From Candidatus Latescibacterota bacterium (GTDB lineage Bacteria > Latescibacterota > UBA2968 > GCA-2709665), in contig OZ242180.1 of NCBI GenBank assembly GCA_965205485.1, positions 2,368,001 to 2,432,000 on the forward strand: a stretch of DNA of 64,000 nucleotides, read 5' to 3'. A program made the position numbers and the translations under genes. Positions 9,552 to 56,555 of the stretch are shown here, in pieces. The number at the start of each line of letters is the position of its first letter. Position 1 is the stretch's first letter. The notes beneath the pieces were generated by a model. It made no database searches, had not been told where the DNA came from, and was given only the letters and a program-made list of their open reading frames with translations.

Positions 9552-9780
9552 CTCGAAGCGTGTGTCGGCAGGACGGTGGTGAGGAGTGGGCGTTTTGGAA
9601 GAAGGGTCCGAAGCGAGGCGGGTTTTTGGATTCCAGTTATGCGAATTTTCATGAAAAAATCATCAAAAGCAATATAATCATTGCCATTTTGTCATAACAA
9701 GTTGCTGATATAGTCTCTAACGGAGACGAGCCGGCGCATCCAGGCCGGCAATATTGAACGGACGATTGCAGTACGGCGAG

Positions 9781-9810
9781 AGACCACCCGCGTGAGGGGT
9801 GGTCTTTTTT
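9781..9810 (+). terminator. Rho-independent terminator
   Basis: AGACCACCC/GGGTGGTCT stem followed by a T run. Confidence 0.8.
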
Positions 9811-9876: not shown

Positions 9877-9905
9877 TTGACATCGTCAAACGATATACCT
9901 AAAAT
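9877..9905 (+). promoter_or_regulatory. sigma70 promoter of the NHLP transporter operon
   Basis: TTGACA (9877-9882), 17 bp spacer, TAAAAT (9900-9905). Confidence 0.7.
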
Positions 9906-9923
9906 TCGCTCGCATCAAATGGA

Positions 9924-9950
9924 ATCACGAAAAAATCATATTTTTCTTAC
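9924..9950 (+). promoter_or_regulatory. Putative operator, copy 1 (shared with the precursor promoter)
   Basis: ATCACGAAAAAATCATATTTTTCTTAC, near-identical to 16582-16607. Confidence 0.55.
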
Positions 9951-10100
9951 GTGTCGAGAAAATAGTTCACATATGCGTAATCCGGTCGCCGGTCTCGCGG
10001 TCCCGATGCAGACCGGCAATTTGACGGCGCGAACCTGCCTTGCAAGTTGCCAAAGATCAGATTATAACGCCGCACGCCTGATTTCCCGACCCTCTCGAAT

Positions 10101-11348
10101 ATGAATGAATCCGACCGGAACAATTCACTTGATCGTCTGAGGACGCCCGAACACCTGGACCGCGCGCTGTACGTGACAACGCCGATGACATGGCTGTGGC
10201 TCTGCGTCCTCCTGGCGCTGACCGGCGCTGTCGTTGCGTGGGGGTTCTGGGGCGAGATTTCCATCTACGTGGAGGCCGAGGGTATCTTTCTGAGTCGCAA
10301 GGGCATGGTATTCGACGCGGCGTCTGACGGCGGCGGCAGACTGGCGCGAATCACGGCCACCGTCGGACAGCAGGTTCGTGAAGGCGACGTGGTGGCTGAA
10401 ATCTTCGACGCAGAGACGAGTGAACGGCTGGAGGGAGCCGTCGCGCTCGTGGCCGAGCACAAACTGGAACTCAGGGATCGCATCGCCGAGACCAATGAGG
10501 AGAACAGGCTCGCGGCGGAGAACATCGCCAGGCAGCGAGACCGCATGGACGAGATGGAACGCATAAACCGCGAGTTGAAAGAAAAGGCCGACATGCGCCT
10601 TCAGGAGGACCGGAAGCTGTTCGCGCAGCGTATGATCGATCGGACGGCCGTCGAGCGAAGCGAACAGGCGCTGAGCGTCTTGCAGCAGAATCTGTTCGAA
10701 TTACTGCGCCGGCGGGACGCGCTCGAAGTGGACGACGTTCGGCGGCGGAGCGGCATCAATTCCCGACTCTCTCACGCAAAGGGCGAACTCCTGAAAGCCG
10801 AGTTGGACGTCAGCGAACTCAAGGCGCTTATCGAGACCTGGCGAATTCGAGCTCCGGTCTCAGGGAGGATCATCGAAATCAAGGCGCAGATTGGCGCGAC
10901 GCTCAACCCCGGAGAGTCCGTACTGAGCATTGAGACCGGTGGAGAAGGTCTGGACGTGCTTACCTATATCTCTGCCATGGATGGCAAGAGCGTCAAGGCG
11001 GGTATGTCCGTCCTTGTATCTCCCGCCACCGTCCGACGCGAGGAGTACGGCTCCATGATTGGTACTGTAGAACACGTGTCCGAGTTTCCGGCGAGTCTGA
11101 ACGGCATGGTCGCCGTGCTCCGGAACCAGGAGCTTGCCGGGACCTTCTCAGCAGCGGGCCCGCCATATCCGGCACGAATCGCGCTCATGCCGGATGCGAC
11201 GACGCGTAGCGGCTTCGCCTGGACCTCGCCGCACGCCACTCGCCTTGAAATCACACCCGGAACGCTTGCAACCGTCGAAATCCGGGAGTCCACCAAACCG
11301 CCAGCCGCGCTCGTCCTGCCATGGATCAAAGAAAAACTGAGTCATTGA
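10101..11348 (+). CDS. NHLP bacteriocin system secretion protein (HlyD-like membrane fusion protein)
   Basis: LDRLRTPEHLDRALYVTTP N-terminus, single TM, coiled coil, PATVRREEYGSMIG, SGFAWTS. Confidence 0.92.
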   Translation: MNESDRNNSLDRLRTPEHLDRALYVTTPMTWLWLCVLLALTGAVVAWGFWGEISIYVEAEGIFLSRKGMVFDAASDGGGRLARITATVGQQVREGDVVAEIFDAETSERLEGAVALVAEHKLELRDRIAETNEENRLAAENIARQRDRMDEMERINRELKEKADMRLQEDRKLFAQRMIDRTAVERSEQALSVLQQNLFELLRRRDALEVDDVRRRSGINSRLSHAKGELLKAELDVSELKALIETWRIRAPVSGRIIEIKAQIGATLNPGESVLSIETGGEGLDVLTYISAMDGKSVKAGMSVLVSPATVRREEYGSMIGTVEHVSEFPASLNGMVAVLRNQELAGTFSAAGPPYPARIALMPDATTRSGFAWTSPHATRLEITPGTLATVEIRESTKPPAALVLPWIKEKLSH

Positions 11349-11423
11349 ATCCCTCGCCCTGAGCTGCATCCGAACCTCCGGTCCGATCGGGGCGGGCGTT
11401 TCAGGACGCCGACGATCCTGCAA

Positions 11424-13541
11424 ATGGAGACCACGGAGTGCGCGGCCGCTTGTCTGGGCATCATTCTCGCCTATCACGGACGATGGGTACCCCTCGAAGC
11501 GCTGCGGGTACGCTGCGGCGTCTCCAGGGACGGCGCCAATGCCGCCAATATGTTGAATGCGGCGCGGGAATACGGCCTTATTGCCCGGGGTTTCCGCAGT
11601 CAGCACCAGCAATTGTTCGACGTCCCGTTTCCCATGGTGGTCTTCTGGGAGTTCAACCATTTCGTCGTTCTCGAAGGGATCAAAGGCGACAGGGTCTATA
11701 TCAACGATCCCGGCGAAGGCCCTCGAAGGATAACGATGCAGGAGTTCGTGCAGGGCTTCGCGGGCGTCTGCTTCGGTTTCGCGCCTTCGGCCGGGTTCAG
11801 TCCGGGCGGACAGCAGCCCAATCTGGTTCGCGGACTGCGCGACCGCTTTGGCGAGGCGGGAAGTCCGTTTGCGTTTGCGGCGCTGGCGACCCTGGCCCTC
11901 GTTGTGCCCGGCGTGGCCGTCCCGACCCTGATCAAGGTATTCATAGACGATGTACTCATCGGGCAGAACAGCGCCTGGGTGTCTCCGATGCTGATCGGAC
12001 TGGCCTTCGCGGCTGTTGTCCAGGGCGCGCTGACCTGGCTGCAGCGCATCCTCCTTGCAAGGATGGAGACCAAGCTGTCCGTTATCTCGACGGTGCGCTT
12101 TTTCTGGCACGTCGCGACGTTGCCGATGTTGTTCTTCAGCCAGCGCTATGCGGGTGACATCGCCAGCCGCGTGGCGTCGAATGACACGGTCGCACGGCTG
12201 CTTTCCGGCGAACTGGCCATCAATGCGATAAACGTATTCACGATGGTGTTCTATGCGCTGGTCATGTTATCGTACGACGTTCCGCTGACGTTGATCGCAT
12301 TGGGGATGGTCGCCATAAATCTGATCGTGCTGCGTTTCGCGGCACGCGCCCGCGAAAACGCCAACCGCAGGCTTCTCAAGGAGAAGGGCAGGGTTGCCGG
12401 CGCCTCCATAAACGGCATCAGGATCATCGAGACGTTCAAGGCCAACGGTACCGAGGACGATTTCTTCGCCCGATGGTCCGGTATCCACGCCAATGCGCTT
12501 CGCGCCCAGCAGAGCCTCGATTACGTATCGACCGTTGCGAACGTGGCGCCCGTTCTGCTCTCGGCGCTTACCGCCATCATCGTCCTGGGATACGGAGGTA
12601 TTCGCATCCTCGACGGGGCGCTTTCCATCGGCGGGCTGATCGCCTTTCAGAGTCTCACGCTGAGTTTCTCACGACCTGTTGAGGGTCTGGTTCGGTTCGG
12701 CGCCAGTCTACAGATGATCAGGGCCGATATCGGCCGGCTCGACGACGTCCTGAACTACGCCCCCGACGAGCGAACGCTCAGTGGCATCAACACGGGAGCG
12801 CCTGTATCGGACGCACCCGTACCCCGGGGTTCTATCGATCTCGAAGGCGTGACGTTCGGTTACAATGCCACGGATCCGCCCCTGATCGAGGATTTCAGCC
12901 TTTCCATCAGGCCGGGCCGCCGCGTGGCGCTGGTGGGCGCATCGGGAAGCGGAAAGTCGACAGTCGCCAGGATGGTATGCGGTCTGCTGACCCCCTGGTC
13001 CGGAACCGTGCGCATCGACGGTCAGGCATTCGAGGACGTCCCTCCCGCCCGTTTCGCCGAAATCGTGTCCTACGTCGACCAGGAGGTTGTCCTGTTCGAG
13101 GACAGCGTGCGGGAAAACGTCACGCTGTGGGACCCCGATATCGAAGAACGCGACGTGGTACAGGCGCTCAGGGATGCCGCGATCCATGACGTCGTCTCTG
13201 CAAGGCCGATGAAGTACGATTGCCCCGTCAGCGAGGGAGGGCGCAATTTCAGTGGCGGTCAGCGGCAGCGCCTGGAAATCGCGCGTGCGCTTGTGAGGAA
13301 TCCGGCCGTACTGGTGCTCGACGAGGCCACCGCCGCGCTGGACCCGATTACCGAGGTCGAGATCGACGACCACCTTCGACGCCGCGGATGCTCCTGCCTC
13401 ATCATCGCCCACAGGCTGAGTACCATCAGAGACGCGGACCAGATTGTTGTTCTCGACCGGGGCCGTATCGTCCAGCGCGGCACACACGACAGCCTGATCG
13501 CGAAAGACGGCCTTTACAGAACCCTGGTCATGTCGGATTGA
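11424..13541 (+). CDS. NHLP family peptidase-containing ABC transporter (C39/permease/ATPase); true start probably upstream of 11424
   Basis: (RTPTILQ)METTECAAACL, CGVSRDG, FWEFNHFVV, INDP; Walker A GASGSGKS; FSGGQRQRLEIAR. Confidence 0.93.
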   Translation: METTECAAACLGIILAYHGRWVPLEALRVRCGVSRDGANAANMLNAAREYGLIARGFRSQHQQLFDVPFPMVVFWEFNHFVVLEGIKGDRVYINDPGEGPRRITMQEFVQGFAGVCFGFAPSAGFSPGGQQPNLVRGLRDRFGEAGSPFAFAALATLALVVPGVAVPTLIKVFIDDVLIGQNSAWVSPMLIGLAFAAVVQGALTWLQRILLARMETKLSVISTVRFFWHVATLPMLFFSQRYAGDIASRVASNDTVARLLSGELAINAINVFTMVFYALVMLSYDVPLTLIALGMVAINLIVLRFAARARENANRRLLKEKGRVAGASINGIRIIETFKANGTEDDFFARWSGIHANALRAQQSLDYVSTVANVAPVLLSALTAIIVLGYGGIRILDGALSIGGLIAFQSLTLSFSRPVEGLVRFGASLQMIRADIGRLDDVLNYAPDERTLSGINTGAPVSDAPVPRGSIDLEGVTFGYNATDPPLIEDFSLSIRPGRRVALVGASGSGKSTVARMVCGLLTPWSGTVRIDGQAFEDVPPARFAEIVSYVDQEVVLFEDSVRENVTLWDPDIEERDVVQALRDAAIHDVVSARPMKYDCPVSEGGRNFSGGQRQRLEIARALVRNPAVLVLDEATAALDPITEVEIDDHLRRRGCSCLIIAHRLSTIRDADQIVVLDRGRIVQRGTHDSLIAKDGLYRTLVMSD

Positions 13542-13545
13542 CACG

Positions 13546-16488
13546 ATGTCTGAAATACCCCTCATCGAACGCATACGCGGCGTCCGGATCGAAACCGGCG
13601 CCCACCGGCCGTTCCCGATGGACGACACGGCCGTTGTCTACTTTGTCGAACGGGGATACCTGGACGTCTTCGCCGTCGAACTCGAAGGCAACGAAGCCGC
13701 GGGACGCCGGAACTTCGTCGCCCGCGTTCCGGCCGGAGAAATGGCCTTTGGCGCGGACACCATCAGGCATCCGGTTCAGCCTCATCGCACGTTCGGATTC
13801 CTCGCCGTGCCATCTCTCGACGGGGTCATCGTACGGGGAGAGCGGGACGGCGTCGCTTCGGACGAGTTCGATCTTGCCGCGACCAGCTGGATCGACGAAT
13901 GGATTTCCCGGGTCTCGGAATTCGTGGTTCGGGACCGGCCGCCGCCCCGGGACGCACAGTTGCTGGAGGCGGAACCGGACGTTTCCTATGCAGCCGGCAG
14001 CGTGCTCAGCGCTCAGCATATGGACGTCATCTGGGTTGGCGCGGATGCGCAGATGCGCCTTGCAGGGCGCGATGCACTGGCCGTGCCGGCGGGCAGTCCG
14101 CTCGTGCCGGTCATCGAGCGAACATGGCTGCAGATCGACGCCGACGCGACGGTGTCCGCATTCTATACGCCAACTGCCCTTCTCACGGACCGGTTCTGGG
14201 AAGCGTTTGAGCGTTTCGGTACGCGAATCCTGGAATTCGCCATTCTTGCCGAGTCTGAATCGGTTGGGAACCTGCAGACCCGACGCCGCAATGCGCACGA
14301 AATCAGGAGAACTTCGGTTACGCGGGCCCTCGGCGGATTCGAGAGAATTCTGGCCGGGCCCGGCGACAACGCGACCGCCACCGTAAGCGACGGAACGCCG
14401 CTTCAAGCGGCGGCAGCCATCGTGGCTTCTTCGTGCGGGGCCTCGCTGGAGATTCCGTCGACCTCCGGGGAAGCACAGACGTCCGTGGAGGCCGTCGAGA
14501 GGATTGCCCGCAGGTCCGGGATCCGGACGCGATGGATTTCGCTGGCACCAGGATGGTGGCGGAAGGACGGACCTTCCCTGGTGGGTTTCAAAGCCGGGGA
14601 AGGCGGCACGGACCGGCCGCTCGCGCTCATTTCCGACAACCGCGGCACGTACCGGGCAATTGATCCGGTCACGAGCGAATCTTTTGTGGTCAACGAAAGC
14701 AACGCGGGGGGGATCACCCCGGGCGGCATGGCTTTCTACGCGCCGCTGCCCAACCACATCGAGTCGGGCGGGTCCGTACTTCGATTCTCGCTGCATCGCC
14801 GCGGTGGGGATCTTCGTACGGTGTTATTGGTGGGCATCGTGGGCGGGATGGCTTCACTCCTGACGCCGATACTTACCGGCGAGATTCTCGTCCGCATCAT
14901 TCCCCGGGCAGAAATCTCCCTGTGGTCTGTCGCACTGATCGCGCTGTTGTTGGCTGCTTTCGGGAACGCGGTCTTCGAGATCGTGCGCGGAATCGCCCTG
15001 CTGAGGATCGAGGGTCGCGTCGACGAGCGCCTCCAGTCCGCCATCTGGAGCAGGCTGATTGCGCTTCGCGCGCCGTTCTTTCGCGACTACACGGTGGGGG
15101 ACCTTGAGAATCGCGCGAACGGAATCAGCGAGATCAGACGCATCATCTCCTTCGCGGCCGTGGGCGCGGCCATGGGCGGCATCTTTTCCGTATTCAACCT
15201 CGCATTGCTCTTCTACTACAGCTGGTCACTCGCTTTGTACGTCTGTGGGTTGCTGTTCGTCCTGGTGGGTGCGGCATGGTTTCTGGCAAGGGGGCAGCTT
15301 CGTCATTATCGTGACGTATTTCGCATTCAGGGAGCGATCAACGGGTTCGTATTTCAACTGATAACCGGCCTGGCCAAGCTTCGGGTCGCCAATTCAGAGA
15401 CATTCGCGCTGGCGCGCTGGGCCCGGCGCTTCGCCCGGCAGAAGCAGGCCGCCTTCTCCGCGCTGAAGTGGACCGCGGGGCAATACGTCGTTGTCGGTAT
15501 GTTTCATCCCCTGGCGCTTATCGTCATCTTCGAGTCGGTGCAGCACGCCATACTGGACGGGAGAGGATCGGCATTCGACCTGGCGGGTTTTCTGTCCTTC
15601 AATGCCGCGTTCGGCCAGCTCACAGGCGCAGTATTTGCCCTCACCTCCGCCGCGGCAACCGCAATCGCCGTGATCCCGCTTCTCGAGCGCGTACGACCGA
15701 TTTTCAATGCCACGCCCGAAACCGCGGACGGACGCATCGAGCTTTCGGACATAAAGGGCGAGCTGGAATTCTCGAGCGTGAACTTTCGATACGGTCCGGA
15801 TGCATCAAAGGCGATCGACAGCGTATCGTTTCGAATCCGGCAGGGCGACTACGTCGCGTTCGTGGGACCCTCCGGCTGCGGAAAATCAACCGTCTACCGC
15901 CTGTTGCTCGGCTTCGAGCGGCCGGAGTCAGGGACGGTGTTTCTGGACGGGCACGACCTGTCCAGCCTGGACCTGACGACCCTCCGCAGGCATATGGGCG
16001 TCGTCCTGCAGAACGGCCAGATTGTCGCCGGAAATATATTCGAGAATATCGCCGGGATGTCTCCGTTGAGCGATGAAGAGGCGTGGGCTGCCGCCAGGGC
16101 GGCTGCGCTCGAAGACGATATACGGGCGATGCCGATGGGTATGCATACCATCCTGCCGGAAGGCGGTGTGGGTCTTTCGTCAGGACAGAAGCAGCGTTTG
16201 CTGATCGCGCGCGCATTCGCCCGCAAGCCGCGCATTCTGCTTTTCGACGAGGCCACCAGCGCCCTGGACAACCGGGCGCAGGCAGTGGTACAATCGTCCC
16301 TGAAGGGGTTGGGGGTGACCCGTGTCGTCATTGCTCACCGGCTGAGCACCATCCGCGACGTGGACAGAATCTTCGTGATGGACGCCGGGCGTATCGTGGA
16401 AAGCGGCAGCTTCCGGCAGCTTGTCGAGCACAACGGGGTCTTTGCCGCGCTCGCGCGGCGTCAGACGCTTCAGTCAACGAATGCGTAG
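13546..16488 (+). CDS. NHLP bacteriocin export ABC transporter permease/ATPase with N-terminal cNMP-like domain
   Basis: VYFVERGYLDVFAV N-terminal domain; GWWRKDGPSLV; GPSGCGKS; LSSGQKQRLLIAR; FDEATSALDN. Confidence 0.92.
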   Translation: MSEIPLIERIRGVRIETGAHRPFPMDDTAVVYFVERGYLDVFAVELEGNEAAGRRNFVARVPAGEMAFGADTIRHPVQPHRTFGFLAVPSLDGVIVRGERDGVASDEFDLAATSWIDEWISRVSEFVVRDRPPPRDAQLLEAEPDVSYAAGSVLSAQHMDVIWVGADAQMRLAGRDALAVPAGSPLVPVIERTWLQIDADATVSAFYTPTALLTDRFWEAFERFGTRILEFAILAESESVGNLQTRRRNAHEIRRTSVTRALGGFERILAGPGDNATATVSDGTPLQAAAAIVASSCGASLEIPSTSGEAQTSVEAVERIARRSGIRTRWISLAPGWWRKDGPSLVGFKAGEGGTDRPLALISDNRGTYRAIDPVTSESFVVNESNAGGITPGGMAFYAPLPNHIESGGSVLRFSLHRRGGDLRTVLLVGIVGGMASLLTPILTGEILVRIIPRAEISLWSVALIALLLAAFGNAVFEIVRGIALLRIEGRVDERLQSAIWSRLIALRAPFFRDYTVGDLENRANGISEIRRIISFAAVGAAMGGIFSVFNLALLFYYSWSLALYVCGLLFVLVGAAWFLARGQLRHYRDVFRIQGAINGFVFQLITGLAKLRVANSETFALARWARRFARQKQAAFSALKWTAGQYVVVGMFHPLALIVIFESVQHAILDGRGSAFDLAGFLSFNAAFGQLTGAVFALTSAAATAIAVIPLLERVRPIFNATPETADGRIELSDIKGELEFSSVNFRYGPDASKAIDSVSFRIRQGDYVAFVGPSGCGKSTVYRLLLGFERPESGTVFLDGHDLSSLDLTTLRRHMGVVLQNGQIVAGNIFENIAGMSPLSDEEAWAAARAAALEDDIRAMPMGMHTILPEGGVGLSSGQKQRLLIARAFARKPRILLFDEATSALDNRAQAVVQSSLKGLGVTRVVIAHRLSTIRDVDRIFVMDAGRIVESGSFRQLVEHNGVFAALARRQTLQSTNA

Positions 16489-16538
16489 ATCGTAAGGGGA
16501 CATGCCCCGACAATCTCCGGTGGGTCCATACGCCGGGG

Positions 16539-16566
16539 TTGACATGCGACGGAAAATCGTTATATT
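16539..16566 (+). promoter_or_regulatory. sigma70 promoter of the NHLP precursor gene
   Basis: TTGACA (16539-16544), 16 bp spacer, TATATT (16561-16566). Confidence 0.6.
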
Positions 16567-16581
16567 TGCCTTGTGGTAAAT

Positions 16582-16607
16582 ATCACGAAAAGATCATGTT
16601 TTCTTAC
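16582..16607 (+). promoter_or_regulatory. Putative operator, copy 2
   Basis: ATCACGAAAAGATCATGTTTTCTTAC; further ATCACGAA half-sites at ~16625 and ~16655. Confidence 0.55.
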
Positions 16608-16702
16608 CGTATTAGACCGAAAATATCACGAATAATGCGATAAATATAATTATCATCACGAAACATTCACTTCTTCTCACCACTCCAAACCAGGGGGCCA
16701 CG

Positions 16703-17017
16703 ATGAAGACCATGCAGGAAATGCAGGACCACGTCGTATTCAAAGCGTCTTCCGACGCGCAGTTTCGTGCCAGTCTGCTGAAGAATCCCAAGGGCTCAAT
16801 AGAAAAAGAGCTCGGCGTGAAGATTCCGGAGAATTTCTCGGTCGAAATTCACGAAGACAACCTGACGACCGCGCACCTGGTTCTTCCGCTGAGAAACGGA
16901 CCGGAGGCGATGAGCGAGGACGAGTTGGCGGCGGTTGTGGGCGGTGCAGGCGCAGAGAACTGTGAATGGGGTCACGATCATCACGACGAATACCACGTTC
17001 CGTTGGGAGGTCCCTGA
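16703..17017 (+). CDS. NHLP-leader (proteusin-type) RiPP precursor
   Basis: KASSDAQFRASLLKNPK..IEKELGVKIP..VEIHED..HLVLP leader ending MSEDELAAVVGG; core AGAENCEWGHDHHDEYHVPLGGP. Confidence 0.93.
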   Translation: MKTMQEMQDHVVFKASSDAQFRASLLKNPKGSIEKELGVKIPENFSVEIHEDNLTTAHLVLPLRNGPEAMSEDELAAVVGGAGAENCEWGHDHHDEYHVPLGGP

Positions 17018-17089
17018 TCGTTCGAAGAATCTTGCCGAGACTTCAGGAGGCGAGGTCAGGAATCCCGCATGGTTATACGACGTATTTTC

Positions 17090-17121
17090 CCGGTGCCGCC
17101 CGAAGGCGGCGCCGGTTTTTT
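17090..17121 (+). terminator. Rho-independent terminator/attenuator between the precursor and the candidate modifying enzyme
   Basis: CCGGTGCCGCC-CGAA-GGCGGCGCCGG followed by TTTTTT. Confidence 0.75.
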
Positions 17122-17195
17122 CGTACGTGCGATGCGAAGTGAGAAGAACGGAACGGCCTGATTGCGTACAACACGGTTTGACGAAGGAGCTGACG

Positions 17196-18287
17196 ATGCC
17201 GGAGCGCCTCAGGGTGATTTCACCGGAATCGCGCCGTTTCATTCCGTCGGAACTCGTCGCCGGTCACGGCTGGGACCGCCTGGTGCGCCGGGTCGGCGAA
17301 CTTCCCGGCTGGCCGGTGTTGAACAGGGTGTTCTTCGAGTTCGGCCTCGGAGACCCCGCGCCCGTTGCCGACTTCTCCGTCCGCGTCCTTCCGGGGCATC
17401 CGGGATTGCCTGGCCACTTCGTCAATCGGGGAAGGACGGCCCGGCAGAATTCCGCGGCTGCCGCGCTGGGCAGATTCCTTTCAGATTTTGCGGATGCTCG
17501 GGCGGGGTCCGGATCCGCCTTGAGCGCCAGGTTCAACGATATCATGCTCGAATACGATATCGCCGGAATCAAGACGGAAGCATCACCGGATCCCGGATTG
17601 TTTCTGGGATTGCGGCCCGCCGCGTCGCCGGACGATTCAGAGGTCCGTTCTCCACGAGACGTGGTTGCAGAGTTGACGAATGCGGTAGGATGGAATGTTG
17701 ACACCGGCGAGCGCCGGGTTGTGGAACGGATCGTCAAGGCGCTCCCGCCGGGGGGTCGGCTGGATCACGTGGGAGCGATGCCCGGCCGCTCCGTCAGGGC
17801 CGTGCGTGTGATTGTCAACGGCATTACGTCGGAGGAAATGCCGGTTTTCCTGGAGCGCGCCGGCTGGCCGGGTTCGGTACGAAACGTGATGGACGCCCTT
17901 GTTGAATGGCGTGACGTATTTCCGTACTTTCGACCCTGTTTCGACGCTTCCGCTCGCGGCTTGCGTCCGCGTCTCGGACTCGAGATGTTTCCGCGAAGTG
18001 AAAGAAAGGGCCGCTGGCCGGTGGGGGATTGGCTCAATACGGGTATCCGGACATGGCTGCCGGTTCTGGAACGCCTGGAGGAGCGGGAACTGTGTCTGCC
18101 GGCAAAGGGTAACGGCTTGCGTGTCTTCCCGGGACTGGAACGGGTTTTCGACAAGAACGGTGTGTATATGCTTCACAAGGGACTCAACCACGTCAAACTG
18201 GCGATCGAAGATGGCGGCGTACAGGCCAAAGCATATGCCGGCCTCAGATTGCTGCGGTTCGGTCCGGAAGCGGCTGCAATGCCCTGA
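17196..18287 (+). CDS. Uncharacterised RiPP-cluster protein; candidate peptide-modifying enzyme (possibly ABBA prenyltransferase-like fold)
   Basis: AAGGAG RBS and ATG 17196; motifs MLEYD, PGLFL, HVGAMPGR, FLERAGWPG, PRLGLE, LNHVKL..AKAY; directly after the precursor. Confidence 0.6.
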   Translation: MPERLRVISPESRRFIPSELVAGHGWDRLVRRVGELPGWPVLNRVFFEFGLGDPAPVADFSVRVLPGHPGLPGHFVNRGRTARQNSAAAALGRFLSDFADARAGSGSALSARFNDIMLEYDIAGIKTEASPDPGLFLGLRPAASPDDSEVRSPRDVVAELTNAVGWNVDTGERRVVERIVKALPPGGRLDHVGAMPGRSVRAVRVIVNGITSEEMPVFLERAGWPGSVRNVMDALVEWRDVFPYFRPCFDASARGLRPRLGLEMFPRSERKGRWPVGDWLNTGIRTWLPVLERLEERELCLPAKGNGLRVFPGLERVFDKNGVYMLHKGLNHVKLAIEDGGVQAKAYAGLRLLRFGPEAAAMP

Positions 18288-19026: not shown

Positions 19027-19863
19027 ATGCCGGCCACGGATCCCTGGCTGCCGGTTGGACCGGACCTGAAAACCGTCAACGCGGCGTACGAAAATCCGCT
19101 CAAAGCCCTTTCAGCGGCCGAGATACCGGCCATCCTCCTGCCTCGGTCCTACGACCCGGCCCACTGTGCCGGCCTGATTCGCCGTTTCATAGACCGCGGC
19201 CTGATGCGGGATCCCGCGGACACGGAATCCGACGATGCCCGAACCCGAATCGACATCGGCACCAGCCTGGGGAACCTGGGTAACGACCGGGAGCGATTTC
19301 TCGATCACGCCGTAAAGACTCACGACCTGTTCGGGGATCTCTTCAACGGATTCGACAATCCGGTCGACGTCATCTATGACAGCCTCACCGCCCTCGCGGC
19401 GGGTAAACGGGTGTTGACGGCGCGCGAACCAGACGGCCGCCTTTACGGACCGGCCATCTTCCGCATCCACTACACCCACCACACCTACCGGCCGCACATC
19501 GACCACGTCACGCTGCGCGAAAAACGCTTCAATTACGATGTCTCCCGGTTCGAACACCAGTTCGCCGGCATCCTCTGCTTTCAAAACGCGGCTCAGGCCG
19601 GGCCGGCGACCCAGGCGATCCTGCACCGGTGCCTGTGGACGGAAGACGTCGAGGCGCACATTGCCGAAAACGCCTTTCACGAATACGCCCGGCTGAACGA
19701 CGTCGGACAGTGCCGCGTCGAGCTTGAACCGGGCGATCTCTACTTCTTCAACACCCGCTGCATCCACGAGGTCCCCGCGGTCGAGGGAACAGACCCCAGA
19801 ATCGTCCTGGCCGTCTTCATCGGCTGGTCAGACGACGACGGCGAGGTCTACGTCTGGGCGTAG
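19027..19863 (+). CDS. Fe(II)/2-oxoglutarate-dependent oxygenase-like protein
   Basis: HxD (PHIDH) and GDLYFFN..IHEV..RIVL jelly-roll pattern. Confidence 0.65.
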   Translation: MPATDPWLPVGPDLKTVNAAYENPLKALSAAEIPAILLPRSYDPAHCAGLIRRFIDRGLMRDPADTESDDARTRIDIGTSLGNLGNDRERFLDHAVKTHDLFGDLFNGFDNPVDVIYDSLTALAAGKRVLTAREPDGRLYGPAIFRIHYTHHTYRPHIDHVTLREKRFNYDVSRFEHQFAGILCFQNAAQAGPATQAILHRCLWTEDVEAHIAENAFHEYARLNDVGQCRVELEPGDLYFFNTRCIHEVPAVEGTDPRIVLAVFIGWSDDDGEVYVWA

Positions 19864-19950
19864 CGTTATCCCGCCACAAGTCGGAATCTGTCGCCCACAG
19901 TGTCATTTTCACGATGGGAATTCGCGGGTTGCGTCCCGGAATCCGCCGCC

Positions 19951-21336
19951 ATGGCTGAAACCCTGTATCGGGGAAACCTCCTTCCCGAGCGTCCTGCCCT
20001 CCGCGACGTCAGGTCCGTTCTGCCCGACTACCGCGCTATGCTGCTTGCGGTGATGGCCGCCATCGCGGATCGGTACGAACACGAGCCCGACTACCCCTTC
20101 ATCGATACCAAGCTGGACCTCATCTCCGGAGAGGACTTCCCGCCGGACGATCCCGTAAGGGGTGCGAACGCGGTCTTCGGCTGGATTCAGGGTCGCGGCC
20201 TCGAATCCCTGGCCGGGCACTGCCGATGGATGCGCCGTCACAATCTGGCGCCGGAACTTCGGCGGCGCCTGGAGAGAATCACGTCGGACGTGCTCGCGGT
20301 ACTGCTAGACATTCGCGCCAGAAACGCCGGCCGCCTGTCCTTTTTCATGTCACCCGATGGAAACCCGTTCACGCTGGACGAGAATGGCGGGATCCGGACG
20401 CTGCAGCTCACGGAGGAATCGCACTATGGATTCAGCGACCTCTTCAGCGCCAAGGGCATGGTTGCCGCGGCGAGATACCTCGAGTTGCTGGATGCCGAAG
20501 CGGAAGCCATGGAATACTGCCGCCGGGTGGACGATGCAATTCACGAAGGCGGGTTCACCACCGACCAGATTTCGCTGGATCCGATGAATCCCGCCGGTCC
20601 CCGACCGGGACGCCATCCCCACGGCGCGTACATGATTCAGATCGGCGCCGCCGCCGTGCTGGCCGAACACCGTATTTCCGACAGCGTGGAAATGGGTCTG
20701 CGCCTCATTCGACACGAAATGCGGACCTACGTCAATCTGGGCGGGCGGGTGCCGCGTCTCCGGGAGTACGACTTCTGGGAAGCGGTGGACGACGACGGCC
20801 GGCCCTTCGAGGAGGACGGCAGGATCCTTTCCGATCCGGGCCACGTCCTCGAGTTCATCGGCCTGACGCTGAAATTCGCCTCGGCCGTCAGAGAAAACGC
20901 GCTGGCGGATGCCGAACAACTTACGGAAATCGCGGACGTCGAAGCCCATATGCCCGCGCTGCTCGCGCATACCTTCGCGGGAGGCTTCCAACCCGGTCCC
21001 GGCGGCATCTGCAAGGTGTTCGACCTGATTTCCCGCGCACCCGCCAATACCGACATGCCGTGGTGGAACCTTCCTGAAACGCTGCGCGCCGCCGCGTACT
21101 GCTTTTCGATTGCCTCATCCACGGCACAGCGGCAGGACGCTCTGAGCATATTCAGCGCGTGCCACAACGCCTTCACAAGGCACTTCGTTCGTCCGGACCT
21201 CCATCTGATGGCCTATCAGACGCGAAACGAAGCCGGACAGGTCGTGCCGGTCATTCCCGCTACCGCGGATGCGGACCCGGGATACCACACGGGTCTGAGC
21301 ATCATCGACGTACTCGAAATCTTCGAGAATGCGTAG
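19951..21336 (+). CDS. AGE/cellobiose-epimerase-like (alpha/alpha)6 barrel protein
   Basis: WIQGR, SDLF, DPGHVLEF, PWWNLPET, DPGYH motifs. Confidence 0.6.
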   Translation: MAETLYRGNLLPERPALRDVRSVLPDYRAMLLAVMAAIADRYEHEPDYPFIDTKLDLISGEDFPPDDPVRGANAVFGWIQGRGLESLAGHCRWMRRHNLAPELRRRLERITSDVLAVLLDIRARNAGRLSFFMSPDGNPFTLDENGGIRTLQLTEESHYGFSDLFSAKGMVAAARYLELLDAEAEAMEYCRRVDDAIHEGGFTTDQISLDPMNPAGPRPGRHPHGAYMIQIGAAAVLAEHRISDSVEMGLRLIRHEMRTYVNLGGRVPRLREYDFWEAVDDDGRPFEEDGRILSDPGHVLEFIGLTLKFASAVRENALADAEQLTEIADVEAHMPALLAHTFAGGFQPGPGGICKVFDLISRAPANTDMPWWNLPETLRAAAYCFSIASSTAQRQDALSIFSACHNAFTRHFVRPDLHLMAYQTRNEAGQVVPVIPATADADPGYHTGLSIIDVLEIFENA

Positions 21337-51276: not shown

Positions 51277-54200
51277 ATGGACGTCTTTACCCACTTTTCT
51301 CAGGCGTCGAATCAAACGGAATCCGTACGGTTTCGCTTCGGAGAGATTGTAATTGTACAAGGGGCGCCTGGCGATGCGTTCTACATGCTAAAATCGGGCC
51401 GGCTGCGAGTAATCAAACGGAATACGGACGGCCAACCTGAAACCGTGGGATTTCTTTATGCCGGCGACCACTTTGGCGAGGGCGCGCTGTTGACGGGGCA
51501 GGGACATCGGGCGGTGGTGCGAGCCGCGGAGGATTCCGTGGTGCTGAAGGTGTCGCGGGATGAATTCCTCGATGTATTGAAGAAGGAGCCGGAGCTGGAG
51601 GCCTATCTGCAGGACCAGGTTGCGAATATCGCGTACCGGGACTTCACGAGGTATCTGAAGGGGTCCGTTTCCGGGGATGGCATGCGGGAGCTGTTCCAAC
51701 GTCTGAAGCGAGAGGAGGTCGCAGCGGGCGCGTCGTTCACGCAATCCGGTCACACGAGCGAGCGTTTCTGCGTGGTGGGCAGCGGCGGGTTGGACGTGAT
51801 GCTTGAGGACGGAAGCACGCACTCGCTCGACGCCGGGGATTTTTTCGAAGAGACGGATTCTACTGTCGGCGGCTCACGGACGATCCGCAGCCGGGTGAAT
51901 AGCGTTATCTACGTCTTGGAAAAGCCTGACCTGGAAAGCCTGAGTCAATCAATCCTTGCATTAACGCCCTTGAGAGAGATGGCACGGCGATTGTACAAGG
52001 AACCGGCACCGGACAGGTCGATGTCCCGCGAGATTCAATCGGGCGGAATTCACGTCCACACGGAAACGGCGGCGGTGAACAACGCCGTTGCGGCGAACGG
52101 CGGGCCATACGATGTCCCGAATTCCAGGACATCTGACGAGCAGCGCAGAACATCGACGGCGTTTCGTTTTCCGTTTCTGAAACAACACGATCAGTCCGAC
52201 TGCGGGGCGGCGTGTCTGGGGATGATCTGCAAGTATTTCAGGATGCCGATCGGGTTGAACCGGCTGCGGGACATGTGCAACGTGTCGCGGGACGGCACGT
52301 CGATGGCGGCATTGGCAGAAGCGGCGGAGACGCTTGGATTTGTCACGCGGGGCGTGCGCACCGGCTACGAAGCGTTGATGCGAACGGAATTGCCGGCCAT
52401 TCTGCACTGGGAAGGCAACCATTTCGTTGTCCTGTATGAGATCAACAAGAAGGGTGTGAAAATCGCGGATCCGGGCGTGGGTATTCGCAGATTGGCCCGG
52501 AGGGAGTTCGAGAAGAGCTGGACCAACATGGCGTTGCTCCTTGAATACACGGATCAAGTGGCGGAGAATGAACCCTCCAGATCTTCCTTCAAGCGTTTTT
52601 TCCCGTTGATCAAGCCCTATACGGCCATTCTGGTCGAGGTCCTGCTGGCGTCCCTGGTACTCAGCCTGTTGGGCCTTGCCTCGCCGGTTTTTACGCAAAC
52701 TATAGTCGACCAGGTGCTGGTGCATCACGACGAGGACCTTCTGAACCTGATGCTCGCGGGTATGGTCGTCGTGGCGCTCTTCCAGATGGGGACATCGACG
52801 CTGCGCGCGTATCTGATCGGATATATCAGCGCCAGGTTGAGCCTCACGATGTTGTCGCGGTTCTACCGCCATCTGCTGGGCCTGTCCATGCGGTTCTTTG
52901 CGTTGCGCCGCACCGGCGATCTGACCACGCGATTCAAGGAAAACGCGACGATCCAGCGGCTCTTCACCGACACGACCATTTCGGCGATCCTCGATTTTAT
53001 CATGTTGTTCGTCTATCTTGGGCTGATGTTCTACTACAATTGGGAGTTGACGCTCGTGATGTTGATTTTCGTGCCGCTCTCGGTAGGGCTCACGCTGATC
53101 TATACCCCGATCCTGAAGTCCTTCAGCCAGCGGGCATTTCTCGCTCGCGCCGAACAGTCCTCCGTACTGATCGATTCGCTGCACGGAATCGACGTTGTGA
53201 AAGCCGAAGCGGTCGAACGGGTAACGAGATGGCAGTGGGAGGGCAAATTTACAAGGGAAATCCAGATCGGATTCCGACGATTGAAAATGGAGATGCTGTT
53301 CGGCGCAGGCGGTAGTATGATCAATCTCCTGAGTTCCACGGTGATTCTGTGGTATGGCGCCTCTCTGGTTATCGACGGTGAGTTGTCAGTCGGTCAATTG
53401 ATGGCTTTCAATGCCCTTATCGGCAACGTGATGGGACCCATAATGGGATTGATCGGCGTGTGGCCCGAGGTTCAGGAAGCCCGGGTCGCCCTGGACAGGC
53501 TGAATGACGTCTATGACTCTAAGATGGAAAGTGCGCGCCAGCGCGGACACGGCCTGAGACTGAAGCAGGTTGAAGGCCGTCTGATTTTCGAAAACGTGTT
53601 CTTCAGGTACGGCGTTGGAACCGATGAACCCTACGTCTTGAACAACATCGACCTGGAACTGAAGCCTGGACGAAAGGTCGCCATCGTCGGCCGCAGCGGC
53701 GCCGGAAAAACCACGCTCGTCAAGCTCGTGCCCCGCCTGTTCGATCCCACGGAAGGGCGCGTGCTGCTGGACGGGATGGATATGCGCGATTTCGACCCTC
53801 ACTGGCTGCGCCGCCAGGTGGGCATGGTTATGCAGGACTCTTTTCTATTCAGCGGAACCATTGCGGAGAACATCGCGGTCGGAGAACCGGACGCGAATAT
53901 GGACCGCCTCCTGGAAGTCGCGAAATTGGCATGCGTTCACGACTTCGTAAACGAGATGCCCCTGGGATACGAGACGAAGGTGGGCGAACAGGGAATCGGA
54001 TTGTCCGGCGGCCAGCGGCAACGTGTTGCGATCGCGCGCGCGCTGTACCGCGATCCGGGAATACTGATCTTCGACGAAGCGACAAATGCGCTGGATACGG
54101 ACTCGGAGGCTGCGATCCAGACCAATCTGGCGCTGTTCCTGGAAAATCGCACGTCCCTGGTCATCGCCCATCGCCTGAGCACGGTGAGGGATGCGGACAC

Positions 54201-54312
54201 GATTCTCGTAATGGAAAAGGGCCACATTCTCGACACCGGCACGCACGAAGAACTGATGCTTCGACGGGGTCTTTACTATCACATGTGCAGCCAGCAGTTG
54301 CAGCTGACCTGA
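51277..54312 (+). CDS. Peptidase-containing ABC transporter with N-terminal cNMP-binding domains (cNMP-cNMP-C39-TMD-NBD)
   Basis: GDHFGEGAL..HRA; KQHDQSDCGAACL, HWEGNHFVV, IADP; GRSGAGKT, LSGGQRQR. Confidence 0.93.
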   Translation: MDVFTHFSQASNQTESVRFRFGEIVIVQGAPGDAFYMLKSGRLRVIKRNTDGQPETVGFLYAGDHFGEGALLTGQGHRAVVRAAEDSVVLKVSRDEFLDVLKKEPELEAYLQDQVANIAYRDFTRYLKGSVSGDGMRELFQRLKREEVAAGASFTQSGHTSERFCVVGSGGLDVMLEDGSTHSLDAGDFFEETDSTVGGSRTIRSRVNSVIYVLEKPDLESLSQSILALTPLREMARRLYKEPAPDRSMSREIQSGGIHVHTETAAVNNAVAANGGPYDVPNSRTSDEQRRTSTAFRFPFLKQHDQSDCGAACLGMICKYFRMPIGLNRLRDMCNVSRDGTSMAALAEAAETLGFVTRGVRTGYEALMRTELPAILHWEGNHFVVLYEINKKGVKIADPGVGIRRLARREFEKSWTNMALLLEYTDQVAENEPSRSSFKRFFPLIKPYTAILVEVLLASLVLSLLGLASPVFTQTIVDQVLVHHDEDLLNLMLAGMVVVALFQMGTSTLRAYLIGYISARLSLTMLSRFYRHLLGLSMRFFALRRTGDLTTRFKENATIQRLFTDTTISAILDFIMLFVYLGLMFYYNWELTLVMLIFVPLSVGLTLIYTPILKSFSQRAFLARAEQSSVLIDSLHGIDVVKAEAVERVTRWQWEGKFTREIQIGFRRLKMEMLFGAGGSMINLLSSTVILWYGASLVIDGELSVGQLMAFNALIGNVMGPIMGLIGVWPEVQEARVALDRLNDVYDSKMESARQRGHGLRLKQVEGRLIFENVFFRYGVGTDEPYVLNNIDLELKPGRKVAIVGRSGAGKTTLVKLVPRLFDPTEGRVLLDGMDMRDFDPHWLRRQVGMVMQDSFLFSGTIAENIAVGEPDANMDRLLEVAKLACVHDFVNEMPLGYETKVGEQGIGLSGGQRQRVAIARALYRDPGILIFDEATNALDTDSEAAIQTNLALFLENRTSLVIAHRLSTVRDADTILVMEKGHILDTGTHEELMLRRGLYYHMCSQQLQLT

Positions 54313-54339
54313 ACTTTCGGCTGACGAGGAGCCGGTCGG

Positions 54340-55743
54340 ATGGCGGAACCGCGACAATTGGCGTCTTCGGGAGCGTCGTCGCCGATGCATCTGCCCGCGC
54401 GGGAGCAGGTTTCGGAGGAGATGCAGGCGTTTTTCGGGTCGCTGAGGCCGTTCTGGGGGCGGGCGCTGCTCTACGTCGTTCTTCTGTTTGTCGGGATCGC
54501 GGTGTTCTGGGCATGGCGGGGCAAGGTGGACGTTGTGGCTTCGGCGCCGTTTCAACTGGTGCCGATGGGGAAGGTGAAGACGTTGCAGGCGCGCCGCGGC
54601 GGCGAGATCGAGCACATCGGCGTCAGCGAGGGCGATCGCATCGAAGAGGGGCAGTTGCTGTTCAAGCTGAAGTCTTGGGAAACCTGGGGAGACCTTCGAG
54701 AGCTGGAACAGGCGGAAATGGCGTATCAACAGGCCGGATACGACTTCAAACAGGTATTGCCCCGGAGATCGGAATTGAACCTGGAGACGATCGCGTCGCT
54801 CGAAAAGCGACTGGCCGTTCTGCAGCGGTTCATGGCGGCGCATCAGAACGCCCTCAGGGACTACCACGACGACGCGGGTGATGCCGAAGGATCCGGAAGT
54901 GACAATTCCGAGGCGGAACTGCAGGCACAGATCGGCTTCAGGCAGGCGGAAATCGATCACTTGAAGCAGGACTATCTTCAGCAGAAGGCATTGTTCCAGA
55001 GGAAACTGATCAGCCGGGTGGATATCAATCAGGCGCGTGTACGGTACCTGAGCGCACTCGCAGCGCTTCCGGGACGCATGTCGGAAATATACAGGAACGA
55101 AACGGCCGTCCAGGACCTCAAACGTCAGATTCTGGAGGCGCGAATCGAGCACGGCCGCGAGGCGTCAAAGATGAAACACGCGTACGAAACCGCGCGATTG
55201 AGACTGGAGCAGGCGCGCAAACGCGTCGACCGCCGGCTGGAAGCGGAGTCGGACCTCATATTGGCGCCGGAATCCGGCATTGTAACGCGGGTGGAGGTGA
55301 ATGCGCTCGGACAGGTTATCAGCAAAGGGCAGGCGCTGGTTTCAGTAGCGCCGGCGTCCGCTCCGATCGTCGCCGAGCTTACGGTATTGAACAGGGACGT
55401 GGGCATGCTGAAACCGGGTCAGATCGTGAAGCTGAAATACGACGCCTTCGCATTCCAGGATTTCGGAATCAAACGCGGGTGGCTCAAACAGATCTCGCCG
55501 GATGCCGTCATCGATGAGATTGTCGGACCGGTTTTCAGGGGTGTCGTTGAATTGGAAGAAACCACCGTGGACGTAAAGGGACAGGAGAAACCGCTCCGGT
55601 TCGGCATGAAGGGCACCGCGGAGATCATGACGGACCGCCAATCCGTCCTGCTGATGCTTCTGAGTCCTCTGCGAAGGCTTTACGAGTCAGCATCGTACGA
55701 CGCCGTAAAGTCGGCGGCAGCTCAGCCGGAGGATTCGTTATGA
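54340..55743 (+). CDS. HlyD family secretion adaptor
   Basis: Single TM, lipoyl half-motifs, coiled coil, LKYDAFAFQDFG, ISPDA, GMKGTAEI. Confidence 0.92.
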   Translation: MAEPRQLASSGASSPMHLPAREQVSEEMQAFFGSLRPFWGRALLYVVLLFVGIAVFWAWRGKVDVVASAPFQLVPMGKVKTLQARRGGEIEHIGVSEGDRIEEGQLLFKLKSWETWGDLRELEQAEMAYQQAGYDFKQVLPRRSELNLETIASLEKRLAVLQRFMAAHQNALRDYHDDAGDAEGSGSDNSEAELQAQIGFRQAEIDHLKQDYLQQKALFQRKLISRVDINQARVRYLSALAALPGRMSEIYRNETAVQDLKRQILEARIEHGREASKMKHAYETARLRLEQARKRVDRRLEAESDLILAPESGIVTRVEVNALGQVISKGQALVSVAPASAPIVAELTVLNRDVGMLKPGQIVKLKYDAFAFQDFGIKRGWLKQISPDAVIDEIVGPVFRGVVELEETTVDVKGQEKPLRFGMKGTAEIMTDRQSVLLMLLSPLRRLYESASYDAVKSAAAQPEDSL

Positions 55744-56555
55744 CTCCTCGCGCGGAAGATGGGAACCCGATTCCTTCCCGGGAAATCACGCTCGTCCAGG
55801 TCAATGGCGCCGGTGTGTCGCTGAGTCAGGTCGTCCGTCAACTGGGGGTCGTCGACAAACTCGATTTCTTCGGTGAATTCGCGCGCAGAGAACTCGTGCG
55901 CCAGCTTGCGGTCCGGGAAGGCATCCGTTCAAAACCGGAAGACATCCAGCGCGACGTGGACGACTGGCGCTATCGACATCGCCTGGAACGTGTTGAAGAC
56001 ACGGAAGCGTGGCTCCGGTCCCGAGGCATTACCCTCGGCGACGTCGCAGAAGACGCTCAGGCGAAACGGTTGGAGCGTGCGTTGTCCGACAAGGTCGTGG
56101 ACAGAAGGATCCAACCGTACTTCGCTCAGCACAAGCTGGATTTCGACGAGGCGGAAGTCAGCTGGATTTTTCACCGTAATAGAGGCGTGATAGAAGAAAT
56201 CGGGCTTCAGGCCATAGAAGAAGGCGCTGATTTTTGCAGAATGGCCCGCGAGTACTCACAAGATGAACGCACGCGTCCGTCCGGCGGGTTTGTCGGGCGC
56301 GTTCGACGCGGACAGTTGCCGAAGGGTATTGCGGCGCGCCTCTTCGCCGCCGAACCTGGTGAAGTTTTCGGACCCGAAAAGGCATCGGGCGGCTTCGCGT
56401 TGTATATGCTGCAGCGGAACTTTCCGGCAGTCCTTGATGATAGCGTTTCAAATGAGATTCGCGATACGCTATTCAGTCAGTGGCTGCAGAGTGAGTTTCA
56501 GCGGGCGGAAATACACTACCCGATCTGGGAAACCGCGAAGGCGGTCCAGGAGTAG
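55740..56555 (+). CDS. PpiC-type peptidylprolyl isomerase-related maturation protein
   Basis: WRYRHRL..WL..GITL, DFCRMAREYSQD..GGFVG, EVFGP; coupled to HlyD. Confidence 0.82.
   Translation: MTPRAEDGNPIPSREITLVQVNGAGVSLSQVVRQLGVVDKLDFFGEFARRELVRQLAVREGIRSKPEDIQRDVDDWRYRHRLERVEDTEAWLRSRGITLGDVAEDAQAKRLERALSDKVVDRRIQPYFAQHKLDFDEAEVSWIFHRNRGVIEEIGLQAIEEGADFCRMAREYSQDERTRPSGGFVGRVRRGQLPKGIAARLFAAEPGEVFGPEKASGGFALYMLQRNFPAVLDDSVSNEIRDTLFSQWLQSEFQRAEIHYPIWETAKAVQE

Follow-up and report, generated by a model that had tools for sequence, protein, structure and literature searches.

A five-gene cassette in a Latescibacterota genome pairs an NHLP precursor with a predicted ABBA-type peptide prenyltransferase

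Prenylation of tryptophan in peptides made on the ribosome and altered after translation (RiPPs) with long leaders has been published for MppC, NctPC and PalQ. MppC from Moorena producens PAL is an ABBA-fold enzyme that geranylates C5 of Trp in the lanthipeptide MppE; it requires the Nif11 leader, which it grips via W336/F340, and accepts neither His nor Tyr as a substitute for Trp (PMC12715784). NctPC (Hubrich et al., Chem 2024) is summarized in PMC13290415 as a Trp-acting ABBA-fold peptide prenyltransferase with little similarity to cyanobactin enzymes, fused to a terpene cyclase and transferring a C20 unit. PalQ from Paenibacillus alvei prenylates the terminal Trp of the linear NHLP (nitrile hydratase leader peptide) core of PalX as its only modification (PMC10853753), and the ABBA enzyme LimF geranylates His (PMC11002830). 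The DNA analyzed here, a 64,000-nucleotide stretch of a Candidatus Latescibacterota genome (assembly GCA_965205485.1, contig OZ242180.1, positions 2,368,001 to 2,432,000; hereafter the window), contains a cassette of five plus-strand genes, comprising an exporter trio, an NHLP precursor and a 363-amino-acid (aa) protein that is predicted to be an ABBA prenyltransferase (Table 1). Our preferred reading, with a probability of roughly 0.6, is that this enzyme would be guided by the NHLP leader to prenylate Trp89 of the precursor, followed by cleavage and export of the linear core by the C39 transporter. The broader prediction, that some residue of the core is prenylated, is one we hold with considerable confidence.

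Like MppC, the cassette enzyme would be a soluble ABBA-type prenyltransferase encoded beside a precursor with a long structured leader. However, MppE has a Nif11 leader and is first macrocyclized by LanM, whereas the cassette combines an NHLP leader with a linear core; a LanM-cyclized core, as in the MppC and NctP substrates, was not found, the core holding no Ser/Thr and the cassette no LanM. The architecture of NctPC, as outlined in PMC13290415, resembles a cyclase-fused protein cluster of 686 aa that carries a squalene-cyclase domain and is matched by the Atlas model of one family member (TM 0.85), whereas the cassette enzyme is unfused and its cassette has no cyclase. PalQ and the ComQ of the ComQ/ComX pair have an all-helical isoprenoid-synthase fold, unlike the predicted ten-stranded beta barrel of the cassette enzyme, which has no polyprenyl-synthase Pfam match; PalQ also needs a terminal Trp and adjoins a histidine kinase, whereas the cassette encodes a three-gene NHLP exporter and no kinase. 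The cyanobactin F-family (PagF, LynF, LimF) shares the barrel fold and acts on peptides, but its members are leader-independent, act after macrocyclization and span ~290-300 aa, and the cassette lacks PatA/PatG proteases. NHLP systems of Haft, Basu and Mitchell (2010; PMC2887384) share the TIGR03793 precursor with its Gly-Gly site and the TIGR03794/03796/03797 trio, but they are described there with YcaO or LanM and with hypervariable cores rich in Cys/Ser/Thr, whereas the cassette has a single, nearly invariant core and only a prenyltransferase-fold gene. The enzyme chemistry has precedent, and the new RiPP type inferred in an earlier first-pass annotation of this DNA was an overstatement. 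Two features appear to be new: an ABBA/NHLP form that is linear and prenyltransferase-only, and a His/acid-rich core unmatched in 79 related cores; neither such a cluster nor this core is described in the literature searched, with subscription papers largely outside its coverage.

The AlphaFold2 model of the enzyme (pLDDT 86.1, pTM 0.88) is a ten-stranded antiparallel barrel of helix-strand-strand-helix repeats, and Foldseek returned only prenyltransferases among the matches listed. In an exhaustive structural search, the top 19 rows were all ABBA, DMATS or cyanobactin prenyltransferases (Z 11.4-16.0 over 250-305 residues), led by MpnD (Z 16.0, rmsd 4.4, 297 residues aligned) and followed by CymD (15.6), DMATS1 (15.2), FunA (14.4), NphB (12.8), PagF (12.0), PatF (11.8) and DciF (11.4), with AuraA also among the matches; the first non-prenyltransferase appeared in row 20, at Z 5.8. 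The fold is thus predicted to be an ABBA prenyltransferase barrel, and no close solved relative emerged from the fold searches. The first-pass annotation had called the protein uncharacterized, which holds in so far as no Pfam or NCBIfam family matches it at E<=0.1 but gives way where its predicted fold is concerned.

Residues E48, D121, R198, K334, K345 and Y347 do not vary among 94 diverse homologues (19-64% identity to the cassette enzyme), while D59, E119, R204, K304 and H332 come close to invariance; most of these residues are located on or beside barrel strands of the predicted model. In ABBA enzymes, the diphosphate is held by basic residues and a Tyr, and Asp62 of NphB serves Mg2+ (PMC7973389). 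Together, the acidic and basic residues and the Tyr conserved here would form the set expected for diphosphate binding, a match by kind of residue and not by superposition, and D59 on the second strand may be the equivalent of NphB Asp62. At the hairpin preceding the HxK motif, a hairpin shorter than that of MppC, the cassette enzyme has V317/F318 and no Trp, and Phe is the most frequent residue of this column in its subgroup (85/155). The W-x3-F spacing of MppC W336/F340 occurs at the matching hairpin in 13 of 91 parsed cyanobacterial-type homologues (119 in total), while W336 and F340 at exactly those positions were found in none of the proteins fetched.

A profile built from 28 homologues retrieved 3,645 representatives at 50% identity clustering, including 656 at E<=1e-30, and the cassette enzyme would supply a likely function for this large protein family, which has no Pfam or NCBIfam name and is labeled hypothetical in databases. 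Proteins P0219-P0319 fuse the family domain to 2-oxoglutarate (2OG)-Fe(II) oxygenases (~575 aa) or S-adenosylmethionine (SAM) methyltransferases (~630 aa), two copies of the domain lie in tandem in P0166, and the Atlas holds a radical-SAM-fused look-alike; a weak search for fused forms of 707-2015 aa, a size range that misses the 686-aa fusions, found none. Profile-profile comparison of the family with the cyanobacterial-type proteins gave P=100, with two members common to both sides. The family extends into LanM/Nif11 clusters of cyanobacteria, the setting in which MppC occurs. On a Pseudanabaena plasmid, the domain is fused to a 2OG oxygenase and adjoins LanM together with a Trp-terminal Nif11 precursor. 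The NHLP cluster of Haft 2010 on the Azospirillum B510 plasmid NC_013855 (L046, ~10001-11050) includes a family member, and six of the seven printed NHLP cores there are Trp-terminal; against the family profile, the Pseudanabaena and Azospirillum members reach 160-200 bits.

The 81-aa leader of the precursor ends in M70-x4-L75-x3-V79-G80-G81, with VVGG at 78-81. The core, AGAENCEWGHDHHDEYHVPLGGP, has the composition given in the first-pass annotation (four His, three Glu plus two Asp, one Cys, one Trp and one Tyr, with no Ser/Thr) and a computed unmodified monoisotopic mass of 2526.04 Da; it includes the His/acid stretch GHDHHDEYH, and its single Trp, Trp89 (codon 16967-16969), is internal. 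Among the six cassette-bearing genomes, variable codons in the leader are split between 22 non-synonymous and 21 synonymous-only, versus 1 and 11 in the core (two-sided Fisher p=0.009, for related genomes), a contrast indicating that the core is under purifying selection. The 90% cluster of the precursor has 16 members; in 15 of them, the only core variants are A82G and one H94Y.

Association of the family with NHLP precursors was examined at 27 loci, 24 from a species-genome collection and 3 from a phylum search, the former being a biased sample as it was recovered with one motif. A precursor adjoins the family gene at 24 of the 27, with none found at L018, L040 and L045; the first-pass annotation had named homologues lying apart from RiPP precursors, alongside a lack of modification on co-expression, as the outcome that would count against it, and the co-occurrence came out in its favor. 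These loci are recorded from Alpha- and Gammaproteobacteria, Binatia, Spirochaetia, Dehalococcoidia and Vicinamibacterales. A same-strand precursor ends within 600 bp upstream of 34 of 43 family genes, and 30 of those 34 precursors have Trp; in certain loci, the number of precursors reaches 18 or that of enzyme paralogues five. A metagenome scan yielded one locus (L049), at which no same-strand precursor was found upstream.

From these neighborhoods, 79 distinct cores were collected after removal of own-genus loci, the near-duplicate L039 and seven precursor matches without a parsable cleavage site; many were parsed with one extra leading Gly, and expected residue counts were taken from the composition of the window genes. 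Trp occurs in 76 of the 79 cores against 20.0 expected, an approximately four-fold enrichment, whereas His (24 cores, 22.8 expected) and Tyr (27 cores, 28.2 expected) remain at background, suggesting Trp as the likely acceptor. Most cores carry Trp in all 19 non-genus loci with precursors. None of the 79 holds more than two His, against four in the cassette core. The emphasis originally placed on a His-rich core is therefore right about the four residues, but on this sequence evidence the His/acid-rich core is peculiar to this genus and the family conserves Trp instead. At L027, L028, L033, L034, L038 and L039, 11-18 NHLP precursors are arrayed together, their cores short and for the most part Trp-terminal. 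Cassette exchange is suggested by identical cores (for example FERHEGFYNINW and GDWNITSDW) that are shared by records labeled Binatia and Gammaproteobacteria. In a genome of the same class (L016 of G121, 10234-13181), a family enzyme is accompanied by a FAD-binding oxidoreductase and an export ABC pair, and the 10-residue core there, WSPSSPSLGP, ends like the PLGGP of the cassette core.

Several observations weigh against the preferred reading. Prenyltransferase models of Pfam and NCBIfam match none of 129 family members, including those for the DMATS (PF11991) and NphB (PF11468) types, and the cyanobactin F-family model (TIGR04445/PF19156) matches neither the protein nor any of the 129 at E<=0.1; DMATS/NphB-type leads came from a language model only (0.88-0.89). 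Sequence searches of the PDB with family profiles retrieved no prenyltransferase chain: the single protein and the A5 profile gave nothing at E<=10, and the A2 profile gave just two unrelated chains (E 0.3 and 0.9). Identity to solved prenyltransferases is only 5-15%, and likeness of a predicted fold would not by itself establish prenyltransferase function. MppC and NctPC were compared by description rather than by sequence, so their kinship to the family is indirect. As for the acceptor, Trp is terminal in 50 of the 79 related cores but internal in the cassette core; the 79 are not independent, as the genomes they stem from are related; the three NHLP cores of a Nostoc locus (L047) contain Tyr and lack Trp, which speaks against a universal Trp rule; and a quick tree resolves no sister of the enzyme's clade among the Trp-core clades, so the Trp rule may not transfer to the cassette enzyme.

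The low identity and the silent family models leave some room for a barrel with other chemistry, or for a non-catalytic protein that binds the leader or peptide or confers immunity, with the peptide exported unmodified as a His/acid-rich metal binder; GHDHHDEYH could bind metal without any modification. We consider this improbable, since the catalytic-type residues are invariant in 94 sequences as divergent as noted above, up to five paralogues adjoin precursors within single loci, and fusions join family domains with 2OG oxygenases and methyltransferases, in the manner of tailoring enzymes. A prenyltransferase acting on His, Tyr or Cys, perhaps on several His, instead of or besides Trp is somewhat less remote, though still unlikely. 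His-prenylating ABBA enzymes exist (LimF, PMC11002830), FunA and AuraA are within the structural matches, the His content of the core exceeds that of every related core, the Tyr-only cores of L047 adjoin a family gene, and the single H94Y is an aromatic-for-aromatic swap. The four-fold enrichment of Trp over His and Tyr at background, however, points the other way, as does the rejection of His and Tyr by MppC at the Trp position (PMC12715784).

The cassette that would carry out Trp89 prenylation has sharp limits. Among 15 genomes of the genus, the enzyme, an NHLP precursor above cut-off and a TIGR03796 transporter above cut-off are co-present in the same six (G000, G002, G004, G005, G006 and G010), while in the other nine the empty site is intact, with the TonB gene followed by dCMP deaminase within a few hundred bases and junctions corresponding to window positions ~9545 and ~18508. 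The absences are thus firm rather than a failure of the search, and the cassette consists of exactly five genes. All three members of the export set reported earlier exceed their family cut-offs (975 bits versus 853.3 with TIGR03796 for the C39 transporter, whose C39 motif keeps its Cys and His). In this genome (5.1 Mb, 97% complete), the enzyme gene occurs once and no NHLP other than the precursor exceeds the TIGR03793 cut-off, which agrees with the single precursor reported initially and answers the proposed search for others. Additional TIGR03793 matches (G000:46043-46432) fall below the cut-off, recur in 15/15 genomes and are most likely nitrile hydratase. The dCMP deaminase, an epimerase-like gene and the TonB receptor were excluded as cassette members, the flanks being contiguous at the empty site.

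Clusters of proteusins in the strict sense (polytheonamide type) have a radical SAM epimerase or methyltransferase, and neither was found among the five genes. A Pfam and NCBIfam scan likewise detected no YcaO, LanM, radical SAM or halogenase among them, as first reported, and the sole tailoring gene of the cassette is that of the 363-aa protein, traveling with precursor and exporter in the same six genomes. The mature product might nevertheless need further enzymes from elsewhere, such as the neighboring 2OG-Fe(II) oxygenase, a flavin halogenase or a radical SAM enzyme, with prenylation only one step. A same-strand gene 740 bp downstream, at 19027-19863, matches the WelO5-type 2OG-Fe(II) Pfam model (62.2 bits, cut-off 27), and two distant genes match PF04820 weakly. 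Related loci, for which the neighbor scan covered 88 open reading frames (ORFs) picked from ~200, often add JmjC oxygenases (L029-L034, L038), YcaO with an oxidase and radical SAM (L017), LanM (L042) or a methyltransferase (L041), whereas L027, L035, L037 and L044 have no recognized RiPP enzyme among the ORFs scanned (L044 has a PhyH oxygenase ~2 kb away). We regard such a requirement as very unlikely: the 2OG oxygenase gene, like the TonB receptor gene, is present in all 15 genomes, including the nine without the cassette, and was excluded as a member on that ground. The search for tailoring in trans that the first-pass annotation advised gave a mixed result, with no YcaO or JmjC match in the genome while positive controls were detected, radical SAM not being searched for genome-wide, no LanM DUF4135 match (weak evidence, as its control was also silent), and the two weak PF04820 matches. 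The WelO5-like enzyme (PF22814, 62 bits) forms a core-genome pair with a GlcNAc-2-epimerase-like protein (window 19027-21336). A second peptide-export set at window 51277-56555 comprises HlyD, a PpiC-type rotamase and an ABC transporter of 1011 aa with cNMP-binding and C39 peptidase parts, and a similar transporter is present in 15/15 genus genomes.

Table 1. Genes, core and candidate regulatory sites of the cassette (window coordinates)
Feature	Position	Strand	Basis
Operator-like 15-mer TCATGAAAAAATCAT, left cassette edge	9649..9663	+	Motif recurrence; putative function
Terminator-like hairpin between TonB-receptor gene and cassette promoter	9778..9808	+	Consensus scan only
Sigma70-like promoter TTGACA-17-TAAAAT, export operon	9877..9905	+	11/12 consensus matches; putative function
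Operator-like 15-mer TCACGAAAAAATCAT, immediately 3' of export promoter	9925..9939	+	Motif recurrence
NHLP-system HlyD membrane-fusion protein	10101..11348	+	TIGR03794 237.7 bits, cut-off 156.2
C39 peptidase/permease/ATPase ABC transporter	11364..13541 (first ATG 11424; likely CTG start 11364)	+	TIGR03796, PF03412
NHLP export ABC transporter without peptidase domain	13546..16488	+	TIGR03797 804.4 bits, cut-off 709.4
Sigma70-like promoter TTGACA-16-TATATT for precursor and enzyme	16539..16566	+	11/12 consensus matches; putative function
Operator-like 15-mer TCACGAAAAGATCAT, immediately 3' of precursor promoter	16583..16597	+	Motif recurrence
NHLP precursor, 104 aa	16703..17017	+	TIGR03793 64.3 bits, cut-off 50.9
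Core AGAENCEWGHDHHDEYHVPLGGP	16946..17014	+	23 aa after VVGG
Intrinsic-terminator-like 11-bp hairpin and T run, precursor/enzyme gap	17090..17121	+	Consensus scan; putative function
Predicted ABBA (PT-barrel) peptide prenyltransferase, 363 aa, family without name	17196..18287	+	AlphaFold2 model, Foldseek, VIA-align, alignment of 94 homologues

The C39 transporter probably starts at the in-frame CTG at 11364, since L.PNLRSDRGGRFRTPTILQ 5' of the first ATG is conserved in 6/6 copies examined, and with this CTG retained in all six the gene looks intact. One extra base at window 11345-11363, relative to L022-L024, puts the TTG overlapping the HlyD stop out of the transporter frame. The enzyme ORF is preceded by an AGGAG ribosome site; a 450-aa reading from a TTG start (16935-18287) was ruled out, the ATG at 17196 having the ribosome site and homologues beginning there. 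The left limit of the first-pass annotation, 9877, is the start of the export-operon promoter-like site. Copies of the 15-mer TCAYGAAAARATCAT lie at 9649, 9925 and 16583, with one further copy in the genome; a chance estimate of 0.01 is circular, the pattern having been drawn from these very sites. With up to two mismatches, copies occur upstream of both HlyD and the precursor in 5/5 related cassettes and at 0/9 empty-site loci, and the 15-mer may co-regulate the export operon and the precursor. The sole other exact genomic copy (G000:C1:1224862, minus strand) is ~1.1 kb upstream of a gene for a 1163-aa WD40-repeat protein (L111 2289-5777). The hairpin between precursor and enzyme would yield precursor mRNA in excess over enzyme mRNA.

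Under leader-guided prenylation of Trp89, the enzyme would dock on the folded NHLP leader, possibly via the V317/F318 hairpin, as MppC does with F340, and would use its conserved acidic, basic and Tyr residues to ionize a prenyl diphosphate from the host, with a chain of C5, C10 or more, for which two polyprenyl synthases encoded in the genome are possible donor sources. The isoprenoid chain would then be joined to the indole of Trp89, the C39 transporter would remove the leader by cutting after Gly80-Gly81, and the 23-residue His/acid-rich lipopeptide would leave by type I export with a TolC encoded elsewhere. As a guess, the product could be a membrane-associating signal or antagonist, possibly binding metal through GHDHHDEYH. 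A bolder proposal, which we put forward as speculation and think doubtful, is that NHLP-guided ABBA prenyltransferases of multiple phyla make linear lipopeptides without other tailoring, elsewhere from arrays of up to 18 Trp cores, and that the product in this genus, with its one nearly invariant His/acid-rich core, would be a prenylated, lipid-anchored metallophore, possibly lipidated at His rather than Trp.

With one enzyme, one precursor and sharp boundaries, the cassette offers a very clean test case for the family. If the preferred reading is true, a leader-guided enzyme acting on linear cores whose Trp is internal would be of use as a catalyst of peptide lipidation, because MppC favors a macrocycle and PalQ requires a terminal Trp. 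In addition, the selected His/acid stretch raises the question of metal binding by a prenylated RiPP.

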